Source of the DNA: Dictyostelium discoideum
Lineage: Eukaryota
Assembly: GCA_000004695.1 (NCBI GenBank)
Contig: CM000153.2
Location: 2,048,001-2,112,000 of the forward strand
DNA: 64,000 bases
Reading direction: 5' to 3'
Position numbers and translations under genes: made by a program. The notes beneath the pieces are model-generated. The model was given only the letters and a program-made list of their open reading frames with translations. It made no database searches and was not told the origin of the DNA. This document shows positions 7,453 through 27,050 of this stretch, one piece after another. The stretch's first letter is position 1, and each line of letters starts with the position of its first letter.

Positions 7453-8850
7453 TTATATTTTATTTAATTTAATTTTAAAATAATTTGAAGGTAAACAAAC
7501 TTCATTGATTGGTTTATATTTTAAATTTTTAAATGGTGTTACACCAGATTTTAAAAGTTGATAATGTCTTAACATTGCACATTCAAATTCACGAATTATA
7601 AAACCAGGTTTATAAGGATAATTATTTACACCTTTCCATTGCTCAATTGCAGTTTCATTTGTTCTCCAATTGAGAAGGATTTTATTATACTCATCATCAT
7701 TTTGATCTAAATAAATTAAATGATTTGCTAATTCCTGTGTAGAGTTAAAATCACCAACGTATATATAAGAATTGTATGGTAAATATTTGATAGTACTTGG
7801 ATGACCCATAAATATTGGTACGGAACCAGCAGTCAATGCATCCAATACTTTCTCAGATACGTAATCTTTACAAATTGAATTCTCAAAAACAATTGTAAAT
7901 TTATATTTTGTTATTACTTCTTTCTTTTTTGCAAAAGGATCATTTGATAATCTTTTTAGTATTTCTTGTGTTGGCATATTATTTAAACAGTGGCCATACG
8001 AATCGATAACTATATATTTCATTAATTCTTGAACGTATTCTAAACGATTAGATCGTACATCTTGACAATTTGAGCAGAACCAATTCGCCAATGGGAGTGA
8101 TGGTATTTGGTGAGGTTGTAGTGCACTTAGATTAGTGGTTTTCATAATTTGGTAATCTTTTTTAAATTGATTTTTAATTTCTACCATATCGCGTGCTGGT
8201 ATGAAATTATATGTTTTAAATGCGCTGGTTTTATGTGTATCGAATCCCGTTCTAATATCAGATTGTGCTTCGTAGGATACTTTAAAATTGAAAATTTTAT
8301 AACAAGTTTGATTGAATGAACAATGTCTGAGATGTGGTGGCTCTAATGCAATTATCATTCTTGGTATGGACTGGTTGTACTCTCTATCGGGGTACTGAAA
8401 TTGTATGCCTGAATCATTGTATATCTCCATGTCCACTGTTTGGTTTGGGTACATTGGTTTCTTTATTAAATAGTACCATCTTTTGTCGTCAATTCCTCTA
8501 CATCTTCTTGCTATATTATCATCTGTTGGCCTGTCAAATGATCCTAAAAATTTCAAATACACTAAATCCGATGGTACACCATCTGGCACCTGCTCAAGTG
8601 GTAGGTCGTCCTCACCTGCAAGTATATTATTTTGATCTTGAAAATCATTATCTAGATTATAAATATTATGGTGATATTTTTGATGTTCTGGACTATAAAT
8701 ATCAACCTCATCCTCAGATCCATAAAAAAATACATTTGCATCATCATCATCAAATAAACTATATTTTAAAATATTAAATCCTATAATAATTAATATTATA
8801 TAAAAATAAATTATTAAAAGTTTTCTTGAGAATGGTTTTATCCTTTTCAT
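7453..8850 (-). CDS. GT10-family alpha-1,3-fucosyltransferase-like type II membrane protein (paralog A), 465 aa
   Basis: Single ORF. N-terminal cytoplasmic tail plus a hydrophobic anchor (LLIIYFYIILIIIGFNIL). The C-terminal half carries the alpha-1,3-FucT motif KYKFTIVFENSICKDYVSEKVLDAL plus GSVPIFMGHPSTIKYLP, CSNC, and NETAIEQWKGVNNYP. About 55–65% identical over the catalytic region to the ORFs at 16096 and 18316. Confidence 0.8.
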   Translation of the reverse strand: MKRIKPFSRKLLIIYFYIILIIIGFNILKYSLFDDDDANVFFYGSEDEVDIYSPEHQKYHHNIYNLDNDFQDQNNILAGEDDLPLEQVPDGVPSDLVYLKFLGSFDRPTDDNIARRCRGIDDKRWYYLIKKPMYPNQTVDMEIYNDSGIQFQYPDREYNQSIPRMIIALEPPHLRHCSFNQTCYKIFNFKVSYEAQSDIRTGFDTHKTSAFKTYNFIPARDMVEIKNQFKKDYQIMKTTNLSALQPHQIPSLPLANWFCSNCQDVRSNRLEYVQELMKYIVIDSYGHCLNNMPTQEILKRLSNDPFAKKKEVITKYKFTIVFENSICKDYVSEKVLDALTAGSVPIFMGHPSTIKYLPYNSYIYVGDFNSTQELANHLIYLDQNDDEYNKILLNWRTNETAIEQWKGVNNYPYKPGFIIREFECAMLRHYQLLKSGVTPFKNLKYKPINEVCLPSNYFKIKLNKI

Positions 8851-9781
8851 TTTTTATTATTATTATTATTTTTATTATTATTTATAGTACAACTATTATT
8901 ATTATTATTATTATTTTACTATTACTATTATTATTTATTTTTATTTATTGTCATATATTAATTATTTTTTGTTTTTTGTTTTTTTTTTTTGTAAGCATCT
9001 TGAAAAATAAAAAAATTAAATTAAAAATAAATTAAAATTTGGTTTATCATTTTAAAAAAAAAAAAAAAAGTGCAATGTGTTTTTATTTTTTTCTTTTTTT
9101 TTTCTTTTTTTTTTTCTATATTTTTTTTTTTTTTGTTTTTTTTTTTATTTTAAAAATGAAATGCTCAAATGCCATATTTTTTATTTTTTTGAGATTTGTT
9201 TTTCTTTTCCCTTTTTTTTTTTTTTTTTTTTTTTAAAAACAATGGTTTTTGGATTTTTTTGGTCTTCCTTTTTTTAGAATTTTCCTTTTTTTTTTTTTTT
9301 TTTTTTTAAAAACAATATATCCAACTCATATTTAATCTAATATTATTTTTATTATTATGATATTGATGAGAGGAAAAAAAAAAACTAAGCCAAACTCCAA
9401 AGTTTTCAAAGAAATAGGAAGGTCCAAAAAAAGAAAAAAAAATATATGATTTTATATAAGGTAGAAAATTTATCACTTACCAAATTTCTTTTTTTTTTTT
9501 TTTTTTTAATCCAATTTAATTGAACTGAATCTTGATTTATTTTAAAATAATAAGTAAAAAAAAAAAAAAAAAAACAATTGTAAAATTTGAATTTATTTTT
9601 TTTTTTGTATTTTTTTTTTGTTTTTATTATAATAATTATATGTATGTTTTTATTTAACTCGATTAATCAGTGAGATATTAATTAGTGAGATAAGTTGAAA
9701 AAAAAAAAAAAAAAAAATAAAAAAAAAAAACCATTACCCAAAAACTTTTTTTTATTTTTAAATTTAAAAATAATTTTTTTT

Positions 9782-9824
<43 letters not shown>

Positions 9825-9884
9825 ACGTAGCCATAATATCTTTTTTTTAGTTTTTAAATAAATAATATAACTATTGTAACATTA

Positions 9885-9919
<35 letters not shown>

Positions 9920-10105
9920 CAGTAAATAATAATTTTTACAAACTATTAATAAACTTCTAAAATAACTGTACTATAAATAAATATATAACCAAATAAAAAC
10001 CCCCACTACCACCATTTTTTTTTTTTCCAAACCCAAAAAAAAAAAAAAAAATAATAAAAAAAAAATACAAAAAAAAAACAAAAATAGAACATAAAATAAT
10101 AATAA

Positions 10106-10146
<41 letters not shown>

Positions 10147-10244
10147 TAATATAATAATAAATAATAAATAATAACGAAAATAGTTGAACCAAATAAAATA
10201 ATATATAATAAATAGATACTCATATAAAATATTAATTAATTAAT

Positions 10245-13200
10245 ATGAGTACTGGTTTAAAATGTTCGTCATGTGGTGCTTCAAATAGTAGTACATCAAA
10301 GTTTTGTACATCGTGTGGCAACAAAATGGCGGTGACAACAACGGCGGCATCGTCACCAACAGCACCATCAAAATCATTTTTAGCGCCAACGATTTCAAAA
10401 GTTACAGTTACCACAACTACAACAACTTCAAGTAGACCAGCATCAACAATAGTTAAACCATCACACTCAACTACAACAACAACAACAACAAGTAGACCAG
10501 CGTCAACAATTGTTAAACCAACAACAACCACAACAGCATCAACAGCATCAACTACACCAACAAAATCGATTTTAAAACCAACCACACATGTAACATCACC
10601 ATCAACAACAACAACAACAACAACAAATAATAATACAATCCCATCAAAATCAATTTTAAAACCAGTTTCTACAACTGTGTCTACACCTAAAACAACAGAA
10701 CCTTTAACAAGACCAAAATCTCACACAATTTCAGTTGGTACAGGTAGTAAGCCAACCACCACCACTACCACATCATCACCATCATCAACATCATTTGTAA
10801 AAATGGCAGCAAAGAGTAGAGAAAGTTTAGATAATCAAGCACAAAGAGATACAATGGTACTTCAAGGTTCTACATCAACACCTTTACCATCTTCAAAAAG
10901 TACTTTACAAATTAAGAAACCAACAACAACAACAACAACAACAACACCACCAACAAGTAGACCAGCATCAATGTCAGTATCAGTATCAACACCAAAACCA
11001 ATTCCATCCACCACCACTACAATCAATAAAACGACAGCAACAACAACAACAACACCGAATAAAACAAGTTCATCACCATCATCACCATCATTAATTGATA
11101 AACAAAAAGAGGCGGAAAGATTAGAAAAACAAATTCAAATTGAAAAAGAGAAATTCCATCAAAAAGAGAGAGAAATTGAACAAAATCGTCAACAGCAATA
11201 TGAAAAAGAGAAACAAGTTGAACGTGAAAAACTTGAACGTGAAAAAGAGAAACTAATTCAAATTGAACGTGAGAAATTCGAACGTGAAAAACAACAACAA
11301 CAAGACAAAGATGAACGTGAAAAACATAAACAACATGAAAAAGAAGAGCGTGAAAAACATAAACAACATGAAAGAGAAGAACGTGAACAAGAAAAACTAC
11401 ATCAAAAACAATTGGAAAAAGAACGTGAACAAGAAAAGCTACATCAAAAACAATTGGAAAAGGAAGAGAAAGAGAAACAACATCAAGAACGTGAAAAATT
11501 AAAACAATTTGAAAAAGATGAAAAAGAAAGAATTAGAAAATTAGAACGTGAAAAATATTTTTCAACACCACAACCACAAACAACCAGTAATTCAATAAAT
11601 CCAACACCATCATCACCATCAATTTCTTCACCATCATTAATTGCTAGTGGTGGTAGTATTAACAACGGCAACAACAACAACAGTCACAATGATAGTGGTG
11701 ACGAAGATTCAACAACTACAATCGCAACAACAACAACAACAACAACAACAACAACCAATAAAAAGAAAAGAGATAAAGAAAAACAAAAATCAAGAATATT
11801 TTCATTATTTTCCAGAATAAAAGATGATGAAGAAAATGATGAAGATGAATTAGTAATATCAAGTCCATCATCACCACCACCACCATCATCACCTACAGTA
11901 TCACCAACACCTGATAATCCAAACCAATCATCATTTAATATTTATGAAAAGGATAGTGGTGATATTAGGGATAGTGGTGATTTTTCAAATAATGGTGGTA
12001 CTATTGGTGAAGGTCAATTAAGAAAATGGGCTATTAAAAGGAATGAATTACAAAAATCTGAAGGAAATTTATTTGCACCATCATCACCATCACAAACCTC
12101 ACTTTCTGGTGCAGGTTTCCCAATTGGTTCACATAGTCCAAATAGTAGTAGTGGTTCATTGAATTTAGCATTAAATGGTAATGGTAATGGTTGTAGTAAT
12201 AATAATTTGGGAGCTACTACATCACCATTACCAATATCATCATTTATACCATCATCATCACCAATGGTTGGTAATAATAATAATTCACCATCAGGATTTC
12301 AAATGGGAACATCACGTATATCATCACCAAATCCACCACCAGATTTACCAAATAATTTACCACAAGCCATTGAACAACGTGATCGTGTAATTGAAGAGAT
12401 TATAGTGACAGAAGCCGATTATATTAGAGATTTAGAGATTATGGTTTGGTTAAAGAAAGAGATGACAATTCATGACAATGATACAACCAAAGGTAGTACA
12501 TTGGAAGAAATTAATTCATTATTTAGTAATGTTGAACAGTTATTATTGGTAAATAAAGAATTGTATAAAAAGTTTTGTAATTTTGATAATTCATTCAATA
12601 CAAAGGTTGAAGATGGTGGTGATGGTAGTGAAAAACCATTGTCATTTATAGACCATATTGCAAGTGGATTCGTTAGTATGGCAGATTTCTTAAAGTCTTA
12701 TTTCGTTTATTGTAGTAATCAACAAAAGGCGTTATCAACATTCTCTGCATTAAAGGGTAAAAATTGTACATATTTAGCATACCTATTGACAAGAAGAGAA
12801 TGTAGGTCATTACCATTCGATAGTTTCTTAATTAAACCAGTTCAAAGAGTTTGTAAATACCCATTATTAATTAGAGAGCTAATTAAAACCACACCACAAG
12901 ATTCCAAATCCTATGAGAATTTAATTAATGCTCAAAGTAAAATTGAGAGTATTGTATTCGCTGTCAATGAAAAGAAGAGAGAATTTGACTCACAAATGAA
13001 AATGCTTGACATTCAAAATGGAATCATTGAGTCTGGTGACACCACCACAAAGATTCTATCACCAAGTAGAAAGTTAATAAAAGAGGGTTCCATACAAAGT
13101 TGGGGTTCAACCATACCAACTGGTACACGTGATTTCATTTTCAAAAAGAAGAATAAAGAAGGTTACTATTACCTCTTTAATGATCTTTTTTTATATGCTG

Positions 13201-13757
13201 AAATTAAAAATGATAATTCAATTAAAGTCAAATCTGAAATACCTTTTGAACATTCTGTAATTTGTGATACATTACTCGATAATTGTGCATTTGATATTAA
13301 AAACAAAAATCTATGGTGTATGTTCTCTTTAGAAACCCTTGAAGAAAAACAATTAATTTTTAAAGAAATTGAATCTCAAATGTTATCTTATCAAGGTCTA
13401 TTACAAGAATATCAAAAATATGTTGATGATAGAAATTGTACTTCTGGTAGTAGTAGTAGTAGTAGTAATAATAGAAATTCAACCATTTCAAATAATGGCT
13501 CCACTGCTTTAACCAATGGTACTAGTAGTAGTAATTTATCATTATCTTCAAATTCTATAACTTTAAATGGAGCTTCATCTTCATCATCTTCCTCTGAATT
13601 ATTATCAATTGAAGAATGGAAATTATTAGTTAAAAATAAACCGTTACCTGCATTACCCACAACTTCAAATAATAATAATAGTAATAATAACTCGCCATCA
13701 ATATCCAGAATTAATAAAGCATTACCAACTCCTCCTCCACCACCATCAAAAAATTAA
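10245..13757 (+). CDS. RhoGEF (DH-PH) protein with N-terminal zinc-ribbon and S/T-rich and coiled-coil regions, 1170 aa
   Basis: N-terminus CSSCGASNSSTSKFCTSCGNKM (zinc ribbon). A long Thr/Ser/Pro-rich mucin-like tract. An E/K/R charged coiled-coil (EREKLEREKEKLIQIEREKFEREK...). A Dbl-homology domain from QAIEQRDRVIEEIIVTEADYIRDLEIMV through PVQRVCKYPLLIRELIKTTP, followed by a PH-like region (KEGSIQSWG...YYYLFNDLFLYAE). Single exon. Confidence 0.8.
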   Translation: MSTGLKCSSCGASNSSTSKFCTSCGNKMAVTTTAASSPTAPSKSFLAPTISKVTVTTTTTTSSRPASTIVKPSHSTTTTTTTSRPASTIVKPTTTTTASTASTTPTKSILKPTTHVTSPSTTTTTTTNNNTIPSKSILKPVSTTVSTPKTTEPLTRPKSHTISVGTGSKPTTTTTTSSPSSTSFVKMAAKSRESLDNQAQRDTMVLQGSTSTPLPSSKSTLQIKKPTTTTTTTTPPTSRPASMSVSVSTPKPIPSTTTTINKTTATTTTTPNKTSSSPSSPSLIDKQKEAERLEKQIQIEKEKFHQKEREIEQNRQQQYEKEKQVEREKLEREKEKLIQIEREKFEREKQQQQDKDEREKHKQHEKEEREKHKQHEREEREQEKLHQKQLEKEREQEKLHQKQLEKEEKEKQHQEREKLKQFEKDEKERIRKLEREKYFSTPQPQTTSNSINPTPSSPSISSPSLIASGGSINNGNNNNSHNDSGDEDSTTTIATTTTTTTTTTNKKKRDKEKQKSRIFSLFSRIKDDEENDEDELVISSPSSPPPPSSPTVSPTPDNPNQSSFNIYEKDSGDIRDSGDFSNNGGTIGEGQLRKWAIKRNELQKSEGNLFAPSSPSQTSLSGAGFPIGSHSPNSSSGSLNLALNGNGNGCSNNNLGATTSPLPISSFIPSSSPMVGNNNNSPSGFQMGTSRISSPNPPPDLPNNLPQAIEQRDRVIEEIIVTEADYIRDLEIMVWLKKEMTIHDNDTTKGSTLEEINSLFSNVEQLLLVNKELYKKFCNFDNSFNTKVEDGGDGSEKPLSFIDHIASGFVSMADFLKSYFVYCSNQQKALSTFSALKGKNCTYLAYLLTRRECRSLPFDSFLIKPVQRVCKYPLLIRELIKTTPQDSKSYENLINAQSKIESIVFAVNEKKREFDSQMKMLDIQNGIIESGDTTTKILSPSRKLIKEGSIQSWGSTIPTGTRDFIFKKKNKEGYYYLFNDLFLYAEIKNDNSIKVKSEIPFEHSVICDTLLDNCAFDIKNKNLWCMFSLETLEEKQLIFKEIESQMLSYQGLLQEYQKYVDDRNCTSGSSSSSSNNRNSTISNNGSTALTNGTSSSNLSLSSNSITLNGASSSSSSSELLSIEEWKLLVKNKPLPALPTTSNNNNSNNNSPSISRINKALPTPPPPPSKN

Positions 13758-13933
13758 AAAATTTTAAAAATAATAATAATAATAAAAAAAGACTTTTAAA
13801 AATTTATATAATTATAATTAAATTAGAATAGAAATTAAAGTATATTTAAAGTATACTTGATGTTTTATTTAAAATTTTACTTTATTATTTTTTTTTTTTT
13901 TTTAATTTTTTTTTTTTTTTTTTTTAGAAAAAT

Positions 13934-15304
13934 TTAATTATATTTATCACCATTTTTAATATATTCAATATCTTTAGCAACCATTTCTTTAACGAGTTCA
14001 CCAAAAGAAGTTTTAATTTGCCATTGTAATAATTTCTTTGCTTTATTTGGATTACCAAGTAAAAGATCAACTTCAGTTGGTCTGTAATATTTCTCATCAA
14101 TTTTAACGTAAACTTTACCAGTCTTTTCACAGTAACCTTCTTCTTTTTCTGCTTCACCTCTCCATTTGATGATGATATCAATTTCTTTGAATGATTTTTC
14201 AACAAATTCACGAACTGAATGAGTTTCACCAGTGGCAATAACGAAATCTTCTGGCTTCTCTTGTTGTAACATTAACCACATTGCTTCAACGTAATCTCTA
14301 GCGTGACCCCAATCACGTTTAGCGTTGATATTACCCAAGTAGAGAATTTCATCTCTACCACATGCAATACCAGCAACGAAACGAGTGATCTTTCTAGTTA
14401 CAAAAGTTGGACCTCTACGTGGTGATTCATGATTGAATAAGATACCATTACATGCATACATATCGTAAGCCTCACGATAGTTTACAACGATCCAATAGGC
14501 ATATTGCTTTGCGACAGCGTATGGTGAACGTGGATAGAATGGTGTGGTCTCTGATTGTGGAATCTCTTGAACTTTACCATATAATTCAGAGGTTGAAGCT
14601 TGATAATATTTAACCTTTTTCTCCATACCACAACTACGAATTGCATCCAATAAACGAAGACAACCTAAACCATCAACATCACCTGTATATTCTGACATAT
14701 CAAATGAAACTTTAACATGACTTTGTGCACCTAAATTATAAATTTCAGTTGGATTAACTTTTGAAACAATACTATGTAAATTCTATTTAAAAAAAAAATA
14801 TATATAGTATTTTTTTTTTTTTTTTTTTTTTTTAAATCTAAAGATTTACGTACACTAGCATCTGTTAAATCACCATAATGTAAAGTAAGTGATTCTTTTT
14901 TTAAAAAAATGAAATAAATAAATAAAAATTAATAAATTTGAATAATTTTTGATTAAAGTAAAGTATTTTAAAATCAATATATGTGTGTGTGTGTGTGTAT
15001 TAAGTTACTTTTTCCTTCAACATGTCGATCTTGATATAAATGTTTTTTACAATGGTATTAAAATGATGAAAGATCTTCTGAATAATACCATGAACATAAT
15101 AGCCCTTACTAATAAGGAACTCTGTTAAATATGAACCATCTTGACCCTAATTTTTTTTTTTTTTTTTTTTGGTCGATTAGTATTTTTAAATTTTTTTTTT
15201 TTTTTTGATTAAAAAAAAAAATGAAAAATAATAATAATAATAAATAAATTAAAAATATTTACAGTAATACCAGTAATTAATGCTACTTTACGTTCTTCAC
15301 TCAT
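13934..15304 (-). CDS. gmd: GDP-mannose 4,6-dehydratase (GDP-fucose de novo pathway)
   Basis: Minus-strand exons: 15263..15304 ([14 protein letters not shown]), 15009..15146 ([22 protein letters not shown]...[11 protein letters not shown]), about 14894..14854 ([13 protein letters not shown]) and 13934..14782 ([50 protein letters not shown]...[48 protein letters not shown]...[18 protein letters not shown]...). Strong full-length match to human and plant GMD (NAD-binding GxxGxxG, Yxxx[10 protein letters not shown]). Junctions 1 and 3 are canonical GT..AG. The junction between exons 2 and 3 could not be resolved to a canonical in-frame GT..AG pair (see findings). Confidence 0.88.
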
Positions 15305-16095
15305 TGTTATTTATATATATATATATGTATTTATAATTATTGTTTGTTGAAGGGTGAAATTCAAAACAAAATTAATTTAAAAAAAAAAATAAAAATAAAA
15401 AATGAAAAATAAAAAAAAAAAGAAAAAAAAAAAATAAAAAAATTATTTTTTCAAATTGTTGTTCTAAAAAAAAAAAAAAAAAAAAAATGATGAAAGGTGG
15501 CAAATGGTTGAAATTTTTTTTTGACCCTAAAAAAATGAAGTTTTTTCCACTCTCCTAAATTTTTTTTTTAAAAAATATAAAAAACAAAAGCTTTTTTAAA
15601 AAATAAAAAAAAGACATCAGCAACGACAGCACTCGCCAAAACAAAACTTATTTCTCTAACAAATAAATAAATTTTGCTTTTTTTTGGTGAAAAAGGTAAT
15701 AAAAAGAAAAAAAAAAAAAAAAAAAAATAAAAATAAAAAATAATAAAAGATTTAAGCAATTTACCCAAAAAAAAAAAAAAAAAAAACTGCCCATATCCAA
15801 AAAAACTAAAAATAAATAAAAAAAAAAAATAATAAAATAAAAAAAAAATAAAAATTTTGAAACACTACTCAAATTTTTTTTTTTATTTTATTTTAATTTT
15901 TTTTTGTCAAATTTTTTTTTTTTTTTTTTAAATCCCTTGCCATAGCCCAACACCCAACAAAAGAAATAATAAAATAATAAAATAATAAAATAAATATAAT
16001 AATTGTAGAAGTAATAGTAGTTGTGGTAGTAGTAATAATAATAATAATAATAATTGTAATAATAAAAACTAATAATAATAATAAAAATAATAAAA

Positions 16096-17487
16096 ATGAA
16101 AAATTTTGCTTCACCATTAAAAAAAGTTTTTATACTATGTTTTATATTAACAATAATAATAATAGGATATAATATTATAAATGAAAGTATAGAATTTACA
16201 GATGTTTTTTATTTTCAACAAAGTAAAAGTTTTGAACAAACTAGGGATCCAAACCAAGTTGAAACAATATATACAAAATATAATGTAGATGGTGATGATA
16301 CGACAAAGAATTACCTTTACGAGGGTGAACATGTAATTGAAAATTATAAAAGTTTAAATATATCCTCAGAGTATTTGGTACTGTTCAATTATATTGGATA
16401 TTTTGAATATAGAATTCCAAATGATGCAGCATTCAAATGTCAAGGACTCGACGACAACTTTTATTATGTCGTCCCTTTGGATAACTCGACAGCAAACATC
16501 GGACACCAACTACCACCACCATCACACCCACCAGTTGATATGGAGATCTATTTCGATATTAAAAACTCATTCCAAATGATAGACGACAGTTCACCAAATC
16601 ATGTGCCAAGAATGTTGATCACATTGGAGCCTCCACCATTTAGAGGATGCGAATTTGAGAAATCATGTGTAGAATCATTTAATTTCAAACTTTCATTCGA
16701 ATCAAAATCAGATGTTAGATTAGGTTTCGATTCAAAAATAAGTCCATTTGAAGAGTTTAGAAAATTACCTTTGTCATTGATTTTGGAAACTCAAAATCAA
16801 TTCAAGAATGATTATGAACAAAGGAAATTAAATAATTCATTACTAGCTCACCAAACATCATTCCCAATGATAGATTGGTTTTGTTCAAATTGTGAAACAC
16901 AATCGAATCGTATTGAATATGTAAAGGAATTAATGAAATATATGGTTGTGGATTCGTATGGAAATTGTCTTAAAAATATGCCAACACCTGATTACCTAGC
17001 CAGAAGATCGGTTGACCCTTTCACTAGAAAGAGACTATTTATTACAAAATATAAATTCACAATTGTTTTTGAAAATTCATTATGTAAAGATTACGTATCT
17101 GAGAAGGTATTGGATGCATTATCGGCTGGTTCCGTACCAATCTTTATGGCTCATCCAAGTACTATCAAATATTTACCATATCAATCTTATATATACGTTG
17201 GTGATTTTGACTCTGCAGAGGAATTAGCAAATCATTTGAAATATTTAGGTGAAAATGATATCGAGTATAATAAATTTCATGCATGGAGATCAAATGAGAC
17301 TGCAATCGATCAATGGAAAGGTGTAAATAATTATCCAAATAAACCTGGTTTTAAATTACTTGAACTTCAATGTCCAATTCTAAGACATTTCCTACGTTTA
17401 AAAACTGGTAAAATACATTTAAAAAATTTAAAATATAAACCATTTGATGAAGTTTGTTTACCATCGACTTATTTTAAAGTAAAATAA
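16096..17487 (+). CDS. GT10-family alpha-1,3-fucosyltransferase-like type II membrane protein (paralog B), 463 aa
   Basis: Single ORF with an N-terminal signal anchor (VFILCFILTIIIIGYNII). Motifs KYKFTIVFENSLCKDYVSEKVLDALSAGSVPIFMAHPSTIKYLP and CSNC. Collinear with paralogs A and C. Its ATG lies about 790 bp from the divergently transcribed GMD ATG. Confidence 0.8.
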   Translation: MKNFASPLKKVFILCFILTIIIIGYNIINESIEFTDVFYFQQSKSFEQTRDPNQVETIYTKYNVDGDDTTKNYLYEGEHVIENYKSLNISSEYLVLFNYIGYFEYRIPNDAAFKCQGLDDNFYYVVPLDNSTANIGHQLPPPSHPPVDMEIYFDIKNSFQMIDDSSPNHVPRMLITLEPPPFRGCEFEKSCVESFNFKLSFESKSDVRLGFDSKISPFEEFRKLPLSLILETQNQFKNDYEQRKLNNSLLAHQTSFPMIDWFCSNCETQSNRIEYVKELMKYMVVDSYGNCLKNMPTPDYLARRSVDPFTRKRLFITKYKFTIVFENSLCKDYVSEKVLDALSAGSVPIFMAHPSTIKYLPYQSYIYVGDFDSAEELANHLKYLGENDIEYNKFHAWRSNETAIDQWKGVNNYPNKPGFKLLELQCPILRHFLRLKTGKIHLKNLKYKPFDEVCLPSTYFKVK

Positions 17488-17720
17488 ATAAATAAAAAAA
17501 ATAAATAAAAAATAAATAAAAAATTATATTTATAAATTCTCAAAAAAAAATGAAAAAAAAAAAAAAAAAAATGAAACAAATCGTGCGATTTGTTTCCTAA
17601 ACCACTGTAACAGTAAAACAAAAATTTTTTTTTTTTTTTTTCTTATTAATATTATTATTATTATTAGTATTATTATTTTTTTTTACTTTTTTTTTTTTTT
17701 TTCTTATTAATAATATTATT

Positions 17721-17756
<36 letters not shown>

Positions 17757-18102
17757 TCAAATAGTCTCTTTTCCATTTTTTTTAATTTTTCTTTTTTTTC
17801 AAGCTATGGCCACATAAGACATGTCGATTTTTTTGGGTTACATTGAAAAATAATTTTTTTTTTAAAAAGTTTTTTTAAAAAGTTTTTTTAAAAAGTTTTT
17901 TTTTTTTTTTTTTTATTTTCTTTTTATTTTCATAAAGACATTTATTAGGTTGGGTTATCAAAATTATAATTTATTTATTAAAAATAAAAAAAAAAAAAAA
18001 ATAAAAAAAAACAATTTAAATTGTTTGAAAACACACAAAAAAATAAAAAATCAAAAAAAATTAATTTGTTTTTAGGGTGTGTGCTAAAAATAAATAATAA
18101 CA

Positions 18103-18136
<34 letters not shown>

Positions 18137-18315
18137 CAATGTGTTTTTATTTTAATATTTTATTATTATTATAATTATTATTTATTTATTTTCACCAACC
18201 AATTTATTTATTTATTTATTTTTTATTTATCTATACAATTTTTTAAATCTTTTTTTTTTTATTATTTTTTTTTGAAAAAAATAATAATAATAATAATAAT
18301 AAAAAATAAAATAAA

Positions 18316-19704
18316 ATGAATTTAAATAAAACATTATTTAAAAGAGTTTATGCATTATGTTTTTCACTCTTAATGATAATAGTTTCATATAATAATTTTT
18401 ATAATAATTTCCTTGGTAATCCAGGTGTTTATTTCTATCATAAAGATATTGAAAGAGCAACTTATGGGAACTATTATAATAATGACGCAAAATATCATAA
18501 CAATTCCAATAAATTTAATGTGGATAATGATGATCCATACAAACATACAAATATTGAAGGTGAAGGAGTTATAACTCGAGATGCTATTAAAGAATTAAAC
18601 ATTTCAAATGATCAATATTTTTATTTTAAATATATTGGAAGAGTTGATACGAGAAAATTAGATCGTGATACAATTATTAGATGTAAAGGATTAGATGATA
18701 AATTTTACTACATAGTAAGGAAACCATATTACCCAAACCAAAAACTTGATATGGAGATATGGAGTGATTATATCGTTGATTTTGAAGCACCAAAAAAGAA
18801 GCTATCATCTAGAAATGTGCCAAGAACATTGATATCGATGGAACCTCAACCCAATAGAACTTGTGAATTTGATAAGGACTGTTTTGAATTTTTCAATTTT
18901 AAAGTTTCATTCGAATCTCAATCTGATATAAGAATGGGATTTGATACACCATCATCAAGTGCATACAAATTGTATAATAAATTAACAATTGATGAAATTG
19001 CTAAAATTCAAACTCAATTCAAATTGGAATATCAAGTAATGAAACACAACAATACTTTACAACCTCACCAGAAATCGATACCATTGGCCAATTGGTTTTG
19101 TACAAATTGTAATTCTCATTCGAATCGTAATGAATATGTTCAGGAATTAATGAAATTCATTGTGGTGGATTCTTTTGGTAAATGTTTGAAAAACATGCCA
19201 ACTTCTAATTTCCTAAGTAGAGGTTCTGGTGACCCATTCGAAAGAAAGAGACTATTTATAACTAGATATAAATTTACAATTGTTTTTGAAAATTCAATTT
19301 GTAAAGATTATGTATCTGAAAAGGTATTGGATGCATTAATTGCTGGATCCGTACCAATATTTATGGGTCATCCAAGTACTATCAAATATTTACCACTCAA
19401 TTCTTATATATTTGTTGGTGATTTTAAAAATGCTGAACATTTAGCAAATCATTTGAAATTTTTAAGTGAAAATGATAATGAATATTTTAAACTTCATACA
19501 TGGAGAACAAATCAAACTGTAATCGATCAATGGAAAGGTGTAAATAATTATCCAAATAAACCTGGTTTTAGATTCCGTGAAGTTCAATGTCCAATTCTAA
19601 GACATTATCAACGTTTAAAAACTGGTAAAATACCATTAAAAAAATTAAAATATAAACCAATGAATCAAGTTTGTTTACCTTCAAACTATTATAAAATTAA
19701 ATAA
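18316..19704 (+). CDS. GT10-family alpha-1,3-fucosyltransferase-like type II membrane protein (paralog C), 462 aa
   Basis: Single ORF with a signal anchor (VYALCFSLLMIIVSY). Motifs RYKFTIVFENSICKDYVSEKVLDALIAGSVPIFMGHPSTIKYLP and CTNC. In tandem (same strand) 830 bp downstream of paralog B. Confidence 0.8.
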   Translation: MNLNKTLFKRVYALCFSLLMIIVSYNNFYNNFLGNPGVYFYHKDIERATYGNYYNNDAKYHNNSNKFNVDNDDPYKHTNIEGEGVITRDAIKELNISNDQYFYFKYIGRVDTRKLDRDTIIRCKGLDDKFYYIVRKPYYPNQKLDMEIWSDYIVDFEAPKKKLSSRNVPRTLISMEPQPNRTCEFDKDCFEFFNFKVSFESQSDIRMGFDTPSSSAYKLYNKLTIDEIAKIQTQFKLEYQVMKHNNTLQPHQKSIPLANWFCTNCNSHSNRNEYVQELMKFIVVDSFGKCLKNMPTSNFLSRGSGDPFERKRLFITRYKFTIVFENSICKDYVSEKVLDALIAGSVPIFMGHPSTIKYLPLNSYIFVGDFKNAEHLANHLKFLSENDNEYFKLHTWRTNQTVIDQWKGVNNYPNKPGFRFREVQCPILRHYQRLKTGKIPLKKLKYKPMNQVCLPSNYYKIK

Positions 19705-26274: not shown

Positions 26275-27050
26275 ATATATATATTTGTTAATGTTTTGTT
26301 TTATGATAAATGATTTATTTTTTTTTTTTTTTTTTCTTTTGATTGATTTAAATAGAAAAAAAAAATTAATATTAATAAGGGATTGTGTGTATGGTTAGTA
26401 TTAATTAAAAAAAAAAAATATATGAAAAAAAAATTAATGCGTGATATTGGTAATGAAAATCAATATGGTGTGAAGGAGAGAGAGAGAGTATGTGTTTGTG
26501 TTTGTGTGTGTGGTTAGAGTGAGAGAGTTTGGGTGTTATTTGTGGAGTTAATGGGTTATTTATAGCCTATGATATTTTTGTCAACTCACACAACAACCCA
26601 AAAAAATAAAAAATTAAAAAATAAACCACATGACTAAAAATTCATTTAAGATTGTGTGTGATTACAAATTTTTGATTTTAGTTGGTTAAAAAAAAAAAAT
26701 TAAAAAAAAAAAAAAAAAAAAAAAACAATTATAATTACAAAGTCAAAATGTATATTTTAAAATAATATATTAAAATATAAATATTTAAGATTAGAAAGTG
26801 GGTTTGGTGTCTTTTTAGGTTTGGGGTGCTATGTATATTAATTTTTTTTTTTTAAAAAAAAAAAATTTATCGTGCTCTATGTATGTTTTTTAACTTAATA
26901 ACTGTATTTTAGTGTCTTTGTGTCTGCCCAAACTGGATTTTGTGTTAAATTTTTTTTATTTTTTTTTTTAAAAAAAAAAATAATCAAAAAAAAAAATTAA
27001 AAAAAAAAACAAATAAATTACACATCTAAAATACTATTAAAGAATTAATA

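Follow-up and report, generated by a model that had tools for sequence, protein, structure and literature searches.

Linkage of gmd with three GT10 fucosyltransferase-like genes on chromosome 4 of Dictyostelium discoideum

Layout of the locus

The locus under study lies on chromosome 4 of Dictyostelium discoideum AX4, within a window of 64 kb (the whole stretch of DNA that was analysed; coordinates are window positions unless another accession or locus is given). It contains gmd, whose product, GDP-mannose 4,6-dehydratase, carries out the first step towards the sugar donor GDP-fucose, together with fut4, fut6 and fut5, which encode three putative fucosyltransferases of CAZy family GT10, so that non-homologous genes of a single pathway are physically linked, as is characteristic of a metabolic gene cluster. 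Linkage of a GDP-fucose pathway gene to GT10 genes recurs in P. violaceum and T. lacteum, in both of which it is newly found here. All four genes are already annotated and named, and the genes themselves are not new: fut4, fut5, fut6 and gmd are dictyBase names, and D. discoideum has eleven fut genes, fut1 to fut11 (PMC3188802 supplement). The protein products of fut4, fut5 and fut6 are named 'hypothetical protein' by NCBI and 'Fucosyltransferase' by UniProt. The features of the locus are the following:

7453–8850, minus strand: fut4 (paralog A), an intronless open reading frame (ORF) of 465 amino acids; DDB_G0284551, Q54PK3; exact AX4 protein match
8851–10244, unstranded: divergent intergenic region between fut4 and the RhoGEF gene, 1394 bp, with ACCCAAAA copies at 9736 and 10031
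10245–13757, plus strand: RhoGEF gene, 1170 amino acids, with a zinc ribbon and a RhoGEF domain (PF00621, E-value 3.4e-39)
13934–15304, minus strand: gmd, encoding GDP-mannose 4,6-dehydratase; DDB_G0284553, GMDS_DICDI Q1ZXF7; four exons
15026–15080, minus strand: patch of gmd exon 2 in which a newer D. discoideum assembly and the reference disagree
15305–16095, unstranded: head-to-head intergenic region between gmd and fut6, 791 bp, a candidate bidirectional promoter
16096–17487, plus strand: fut6 (paralog B), an intronless ORF of 463 amino acids; DDB_G0284503, Q54PK0; exact AX4 protein match
17488–18315, unstranded: spacer between fut6 and fut5, upstream of fut5, 828 bp, with one ACCCAAAAAAA copy at 17828–17838
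18316–19704, plus strand: fut5 (paralog C), an intronless ORF of 462 amino acids; DDB_G0284505, Q54PJ9; exact AX4 protein match

The distances from gmd are 791 bp to fut6, 3.0 kb to fut5 and 5.1 kb to fut4. A sequence-only reading of the same DNA had assigned it to Dictyostelium and described a dehydratase gene among three GT10 genes produced by tandem or inverted amplification. The organism is correct, the coordinates of all four genes hold to the base, and the transferase genes are arranged as claimed, with fut6 and fut5 in tandem and fut4 inverted. The start codons of gmd (15304) and fut6 (16096) do face away from each other in a head-to-head pair with 791 bp between them. The cluster of gmd and three GT10 genes is likewise present, but the intervening RhoGEF gene and the existing dictyBase names had been overlooked.

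The cluster is flanked by an SMC gene and an SF3b2-like (DUF382/PSP) gene. The window is AT-rich, with about 22% GC overall and about 28–33% GC in exons. No further GT10 copy was identified in the 64-kb window by tblastn, and a tRNA scan of the window detected no tRNA.

Conservation of the layout in the D. discoideum complex

The gene order fut5, fut6, gmd, RhoGEF, fut4, SMC recurs in an independent chromosome-level D. discoideum assembly, in which 21.4 kb match the window at 99.66% identity, and is also kept in D. cf. discoideum, D. firmibasis and D. citrinum. The order is kept in D. dimigraforme except that the fut5-position gene is absent, and this species has two GT10 copies (L006 4667–9285). 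The three-copy layout is therefore one that D. discoideum, D. citrinum and D. firmibasis have in common. The strain of assembly GCA_054883475.1 was inferred solely from how closely it matches AX4. The RhoGEF position is occupied in loci L001, L002, L004, L005 and L006 by a gene of comparable size, which is recorded as a RhoGEF in L002 and L004 only. The fut6-position protein of D. dimigraforme is 507 amino acids long and has a low-complexity, Asn/Thr-rich C-terminal extension.

Linkage of GDP-fucose synthesis and GT10 genes in other dictyostelids

The gmd gene of P. violaceum is placed tail-to-tail with a GT10 ORF of 458 amino acids located about 110 bp away (AJWJ01000037.1 11319–12695, minus strand; PF00852, E-value 2.6e-18). 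An intact second GT10 gene, CYY_001539, is found 12.5 kb away on the same contig, which places gmd and two GT10 genes within 15 kb. At the loci of Polysphondylium and D. purpureum, whose comparison the sequence-only reading had proposed for dating the duplications, GT10 genes are near gmd in P. violaceum and none is near gmd in D. purpureum. The GT10 ORF adjacent to P. violaceum gmd is unbroken but is without the FENS, YxxEK and SNC...R motifs and has a very long branch in the tree; judged on these features, its product may be a pseudoenzyme or have taken on a new function.

In T. lacteum the closest Fut4/5/6 homologue is located within a five-gene GT10 array that surrounds a GDP-L-fucose synthase gene (LODT01000013.1 276–12536). 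GDP-fucose synthase catalyses the second of the two steps in de novo synthesis of GDP-fucose. The genes of this array are as follows:

LODT01000013.1, 276–1214, 2939–4111, 8370–9521 (minus strand), 10001–11194 and 11808–12536: GT10 array
LODT01000013.1, 6961–8034: GDP-L-fucose synthase gene, matching human GDP-L-fucose synthase with an E-value of 2e-109

The linked GT10 genes in P. violaceum and T. lacteum mostly belong to the same dictyostelid subfamily as Fut4, Fut5 and Fut6. The one D. purpureum member identified in this subfamily (157080) is found on another contig from gmd and has no fucose-related neighbours.

When the gmd flanks of D. purpureum, T. lacteum, P. violaceum and D. discoideum were compared by tblastx, nothing but noise from summed short matches emerged, and blastp comparison of the flanking-gene ORFs between these lineages returned no matches. 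Since the genes flanking gmd are unconserved between lineages, general synteny does not explain the linkage pattern, and the linkage is conserved or recurrent beyond general synteny across the D. discoideum complex, P. violaceum and T. lacteum. As the flank comparisons gave no synteny, the ancestral state of the gmd locus cannot be inferred from them.

At 14352–14828 of the H. album contig GL290989.1, approximately 2.5 kb downstream of the full-length gmd, there is a fragment of 114 amino acids with a GDP_Man_Dehyd Pfam match. This fragment sits among Kelch-repeat genes and is probably a partial gmd duplicate.

GT10 membership of Fut4, Fut5 and Fut6

The GT10 C-terminal domain (PF00852, gathering score 23.9 bits) was identified in the products of fut4 (E-value 1.5e-35), fut6 (4e-37) and fut5 (5.4e-36). 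A profile of the subfamily exhibited homology with the solved structures of human FUT9 (8d0o, E-value 1.3e-35), Arabidopsis FUT11/FucTA (9s6a, 1.3e-27), mango FUT13 (7yro, 7e-25) and H. pylori FucT (2nzw, 5e-18). The alpha-1,3-fucosyltransferase motifs are carried by all three proteins in the form KYKFTIVFENS(I/L)CKDYVSEKV and WFC(S/T)NC...SNR, and in the profile alignment these residues line up with the corresponding motifs of FUT9 and FUT11. The donor-binding and catalytic residues E178, R272, E326, N327, S328, Y333, E336 and K337 are identical across Fut4, Fut5 and Fut6; among 75 diverse relatives R272, E326, Y333, E336 and K337 never vary, and conservation of E178 and N327 is at least 90%. 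The N-terminal acceptor domain PF17039 was not detected by Pfam in Fut4, Fut5 or Fut6, and for this reason acceptor specificity is not readable from the sequence. The profile also aligns weakly with the N-domain of FUT9 (independent E-value 0.12), pairing E178 with the Glu of FUT9 NLESP, which is reported to be the catalytic base of that enzyme.

An AlphaFold2 model of Fut6, made with a 75-sequence alignment, has a two-domain body with a predicted local distance difference test score (pLDDT) of 86.6 and a predicted template modelling score (pTM) of 0.81; an earlier run with an 11-sequence alignment reached a pLDDT of 47 and was discarded. The 18 best Foldseek matches of the model in the Protein Data Bank were all GT10 enzymes, followed by other GT-B enzymes. 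The best structural matches were FUT9 (E-value 6.8e-14), FUT13, FUT11 and H. pylori FucT, with target-normalised template modelling (TM) scores of 0.44–0.64 across the GT10 matches, and the two-domain model superposes on FUT9, FUT13 and FUT11 over 320–388 alignment columns. A hydrophobic segment at approximately residues 12–30 of Fut4, Fut5 and Fut6 corresponds to a type II topology, and the Fut6 model features an N-terminal helix (residues 7–38) and a low-confidence stem (residues 33–59). PF17039 apart, every criterion of sequence and fold that could be tested places Fut4, Fut5 and Fut6 in GT10, and they are predicted to have a GT-B fold and a type II membrane topology. The GT10 identity proposed for the three ORFs is thereby borne out by domain (including a hidden Markov model search), motifs and fold.

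Divergence and age of the fut copies

Fut4, Fut5 and Fut6 are 53–59% identical to one another and are therefore not recent duplicates. The ratio of nonsynonymous to synonymous substitution rates (Ka/Ks) relative to D. cf. discoideum was 0.15 for fut4, 0.12 for fut6, 0.06 for fut5 and 0.07 for the last exon of gmd; with values of 0.06–0.15, fut4, fut5 and fut6 are all under purifying selection. The most conserved of the three is fut5, which has 81% amino acid identity to its D. citrinum orthologue. Orthologues diverge fast, with 63% identity for fut4 between D. discoideum and D. citrinum and about 98% for the last exon of Gmd.

A neighbour-joining tree was built on 349 columns with 200 bootstraps, with fut1, fut2, fut3 and fut7 of D. 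discoideum left out. In this tree the A, B and C paralogs form a clade with D. purpureum DICPUDRAFT_157080 in which the D. purpureum protein is placed outside A/B/C (bootstrap 99). The B-position orthologues group with a bootstrap of 100 and the C-position orthologues with a bootstrap of 96. The tree fits a triplication that predates the radiation of D. discoideum and D. citrinum, and whether this event fell before or after the D. purpureum split is less certain. A lineage-specific amplification had been anticipated from the window, and the three-copy cluster does appear limited to the D. discoideum complex, given the D. purpureum gmd locus free of GT10 genes and the position of 157080 in the tree.

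The D. firmibasis fut4- and fut6-position copies are 67% and 61% identical to the fut5-position copy of the same species, as against 56% and 54% to D. discoideum fut4 and fut6. All of the D. firmibasis GT10 copies (L004 4234–5628, 6814–8058 and 16953–18335) group with the fut5 clade (bootstrap 100). The pattern suggests gene conversion within the D. firmibasis cluster or independent re-duplication.

When AX4 is set against other isolates labelled D. discoideum, Fut6 shows only 93% amino acid identity and is thus markedly polymorphic within the species. These other isolates also carry a seven-residue insertion in Fut6 near residue 50.

The gmd gene and a patch in the reference sequence

The product of the last gmd exon matches PF16363, of the SDR superfamily, with an E-value of 3e-110, and the identity of the protein to its D. 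purpureum counterpart is 82%. The N-terminal GxxGxxG motif is present, as are the catalytic Thr/Glu and YxxxK residues, the latter within SPYAVAKQY. Together with its splice sites, the exon map of the gene is:

15304–15263, 15146–15009, 14894–14854 and 14782–13934, minus strand: gmd exons 1 to 4

In the patch of exon 2 (15026–15080), the reference and the newer assembly differ by three one-base insertions, one deletion and five substitutions, and a second patch in the gmd/fut6 intergenic region (15512–15597) holds five more substitutions. Over the rest of the 21.4 kb the two sequences differ almost solely in homopolymer lengths, and at several patch positions D. cf. discoideum matches the newer assembly. 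In the window the universally conserved GII-RRSSSFNT-SRIEHLYQD-HVEGKK segment of exon 2 is broken across three reading frames, and the RRSSSFNT NADP(H)-binding segment is not in frame. The newer D. discoideum assembly carries RRSSSFNT unbroken, as do the other five dictyostelid GMDs in the alignment. The sequence-only reading was right about the identity of the gene and overlooked the corrupted exon.

With canonical GT-AG introns, the gmd coding sequence is 1070 nt and frameshifted in the window, and 1068 nt in the newer assembly (L002). The curated Swiss-Prot protein Q1ZXF7 (356 amino acids) can be reproduced only if exon 3 is started from 14895, behind a non-canonical AA acceptor, whereas canonical splicing in L002 gives exactly P0147, a protein of 355 amino acids with the NADP-binding segment RRSSSFNTSRIEHLYQDQHVEGKK. 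A sequencing error in the 2005 reference, later carried into Q1ZXF7, is the probable cause of the exon 2 patch. The alternative, that AX4 truly has a damaged gmd and lives on fucose salvage, is unlikely. Q1ZXF7 appears to hold a 25-residue artefact over the NADP-binding motif, which matters for any modelling or alignment of GMD.

The gmd/fut6 intergenic region

The head-to-head order of gmd and fut6 is kept among the relatives (five species), with a spacing of 791 bp in AX4, 958 bp in D. cf. discoideum, 728 bp in D. citrinum, 715 bp in D. dimigraforme and 1942 bp in D. firmibasis. The AX4 spacing is below 1 kb. A distance of about 0.8 kb between head-to-head genes is nothing unusual in the compact Dictyostelium genome, and for this reason the spacing alone does not prove a bidirectional promoter. 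In the five-species alignment only TTTTGA(A/T)TTTCACC, approximately 45–60 nt upstream of the gmd start codon, is conserved throughout.

The 11-mer ACCCAAAAAAA, which was chosen post hoc, has four copies in the 64 kb where 0.73 are expected from shuffles. Three of them are located upstream of fut4 (10031–10041), between gmd and fut6 (15763–15773) and upstream of fut5 (17828–17838), and the fourth is found at 26596–26606. D. cf. discoideum keeps one of these in each region, and in more distant species the copies are mostly absent. As a shared cis-element, ACCCAAAAAAA is a candidate to be treated as a lead and not as evidence. Of shared promoter motifs, for which the sequence-only reading had proposed to look, the search yielded ACCCAAAAAAA alone, picked after the fact and kept in the closest relative only.

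Weighing the linkage

From knowledge of the pathway, Gmd and GDP-fucose synthase would make GDP-fucose in the cytosol, a transporter would move it into the Golgi, and Fut4, Fut5 and Fut6 would attach fucose through an alpha-1,3/4 linkage to acceptor glycans, plausibly at the N-glycan core, at peripheral positions or at both. Selection could favour linkage of the donor and transferase genes through putative co-regulation within a shared chromatin neighbourhood, or because a glycan trait that evolves fast would then be inherited together. The reading that we favour, at a probability of roughly 0.6, is that the annotated gmd/fut4/fut6/fut5 locus represents a selected, non-chance linkage of donor supply and putative transferases. 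The linkage looks more than accidental because similar pairings are found in two other slime-mould lineages; no feature within the window favours the metabolic-cluster reading as much as this recurrence, in P. violaceum and T. lacteum, does. A broader proposal, which we put forward tentatively and at less than even odds, is that dictyostelids have repeatedly, and perhaps convergently, built 'fucosylation islands' in which one enzyme of de novo GDP-fucose synthesis (Gmd in the D. discoideum complex and P. violaceum, GDP-fucose synthase in T. lacteum) is linked to an expanding array from a GT10 subfamily that is specific to dictyostelids and evolves fast, with selection acting on the linkage of donor supply with species-specific surface fucosylation.

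A number of observations weigh against selected linkage, and most of them are equally what would be expected by chance. Under the chance explanation, GT10 genes happened to triplicate beside gmd, the layout persists in the D. discoideum complex only for want of time to rearrange, and the linkage means nothing for regulation or selection. The genome is compact and has many close head-to-head pairs. The RhoGEF gene separates gmd from fut4 and interrupts the cluster, as a gene in that position does in each D. discoideum-complex species looked at, and unrelated genes also interrupt the T. lacteum GT10 array. There is no GT10 sequence within 10 kb of gmd in D. purpureum, and the gmd loci of H. album and T. 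lacteum have no GT10 neighbour, the T. lacteum gmd being on a contig other than that of the GT10 array. The gmd/fut6 intergenic sequence is barely conserved, with its other GC-containing blocks common only to the closest relatives and poor conservation beyond these, and the sole shared motif, ACCCAAAAAAA, is a post hoc choice. With flanking synteny eroded, a shared origin of the P. violaceum and D. discoideum linkages is not decidable. The age of the trio is affected as well: DICPUDRAFT_157080 is the reported syntenic orthologue of fut7 (PMC3188802 supplement), and because of this, and because fut1–3 and fut7 are outside the tree, the fut4/5/6 clade could have an older origin, before the D. 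purpureum split, followed by loss in D. purpureum. What chance does not readily account for is the second linkage of a pathway gene to GT10 genes in P. violaceum and a further one, through the other enzyme, in T. lacteum. If about nine GT10 loci and a 34-Mb genome are assumed, a given gene would fall within 15 kb of a GT10 locus with a rough probability of 0.008, and two to three linkages in about seven gene-by-lineage checks would have a probability of roughly 1e-3 to 2e-5. These odds of about 1e-3 or lower stand against chance, though they were estimated post hoc and are inferred rather than tested. On balance, chance is a possible explanation of some weight, but a doubtful one.

The remaining explanations fare worse than a chance arrangement. 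Fut4, Fut5 and Fut6 could be GT10-like yet inactive, or could use another donor, in which case the proximity of gmd would be metabolically irrelevant. PF17039 escapes Pfam detection, the GT10 copy beside P. violaceum gmd has lost its catalytic motifs, and no Dictyostelium GT10 enzyme has been assayed or biochemically proven (PMC11795075), which also counts against the favoured reading. With donor-binding and catalytic residues invariant in all three proteins, a two-domain model that superposes on FUT9, FUT13 and FUT11, and Ka/Ks values of 0.06–0.15, such inactivity is quite improbable; a pseudogene reading of fut4, fut5 and fut6 was rejected on the intact ORFs, these Ka/Ks values and the conserved residues. 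Mis-assembly or collapse of the three paralogues, which the sequence-only reading had itself named as a way for the cluster to fail, finds an echo in the local sequence-quality problem of the reference within gmd. The same order and orientation are nevertheless repeated in the independent D. discoideum assembly (99.66%, 21.4 kb) and in four other assemblies, and the paralogues, at about 78–79% DNA identity over their conserved halves, are too divergent for collapse; an artefact is refuted by the independent assemblies and was rejected. Descent from a horizontally acquired bacterial gmd-fcl-fucosyltransferase operon is similarly next to negligible. Genes for gmd, fcl and fucosyltransferases are commonly co-operonic in bacteria, but dictyostelid Gmd groups with the GMDs of fungi and other eukaryotes, to which it is 67–72% identical, three spliceosomal introns interrupt gmd, the base composition is native, and among the ten top matches looked up springtails were the only named non-dictyostelid relatives of the GT10 subfamily. 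Horizontal transfer from bacteria was rejected on the introns, the native composition and the eukaryotic affinities.

The favoured reading of a selected gmd-fut linkage has a practical consequence. In D. purpureum far fewer GT10 genes are present and fucosylation is weaker (PMC3188802, PMC11795075), and in 2011 the GT10 genes found only in D. discoideum were proposed to encode the core alpha-3-fucosyltransferase (PMC3188802; PMC11795075). On these grounds fut4, fut5 and fut6 are reasonable candidates for that enzyme, and the gmd-linked trio, missing from the weakly fucosylating D. purpureum, amounts to a short candidate list for a fucosyltransferase activity. Full-text literature searches, whose coverage excluded most subscription journals, returned no mention of the gmd-fut4/5/6 clustering or of its recurrence, and the four gene identifiers were absent from the paper full texts searched. 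If linkage has been selected in several dictyostelid lineages, it would provide a clean protist case of clustering between primary metabolism and glycosylation genes and would bear on the evolution of species-specific cell-surface glycans. The finding stands and is of modest interest: its genes were annotated before and the cluster is small and interrupted, and the recurrence and the candidate list lift it above routine annotation.

Comparison with known enzymes and gene clusters

The genes described here are the same as those of the dictyBase fut family and gmd (PMC3188802), namely fut4, fut5, fut6 and gmd. In common with FUT9, FUT11, FUT13 and H. pylori FucT, the three transferase-like proteins have the PF00852 donor domain, the FENS...Y-x-x-EK and SNC...R motifs and a candidate counterpart of the N-domain Glu (E178), as well as a predicted type II anchor and a predicted GT-B two-domain fold. 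They differ from these solved GT10 enzymes in that the Fut6 model is only 14–20% identical to them in structural alignments and the acceptor domain is below Pfam detection. Two marks also set apart the Fut4/5/6 subfamily, mainly dictyostelid so far: the conserved segment W-R-x-N-x-T-x-I-E-Q-W and a C-terminal tail that contains Cys.

Bacterial polysaccharide loci, such as the colanic-acid cluster and fucose-containing O-antigen clusters, combine gmd, fcl and fucosyltransferase genes. The dictyostelid loci are like these in that donor-synthesis genes are linked to donor-consuming transferases, a likeness in logic only. The bacterial loci are operons with both pathway enzymes, whereas the dictyostelid genes are separately transcribed eukaryotic genes, with introns in gmd. 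The dictyostelid clusters hold one of the two pathway enzymes per lineage, have unrelated genes interspersed and give no sign of bacterial origin.

Closer to hand are the metabolic gene clusters of eukaryotes, which include GAL and DAL of yeast and the specialised-metabolism clusters of plants and fungi. The gmd locus and these clusters are alike in the linkage of non-homologous pathway genes together with tandem duplication of one member. Clusters of the GAL and DAL type are partly defined by co-expression. The gmd locus is interrupted by an unrelated gene and minimal, with one supply enzyme and its consumers. Taken by analogy, the gmd locus would work like a minimal eukaryotic metabolic cluster in which a supply enzyme is placed beside its consumers.

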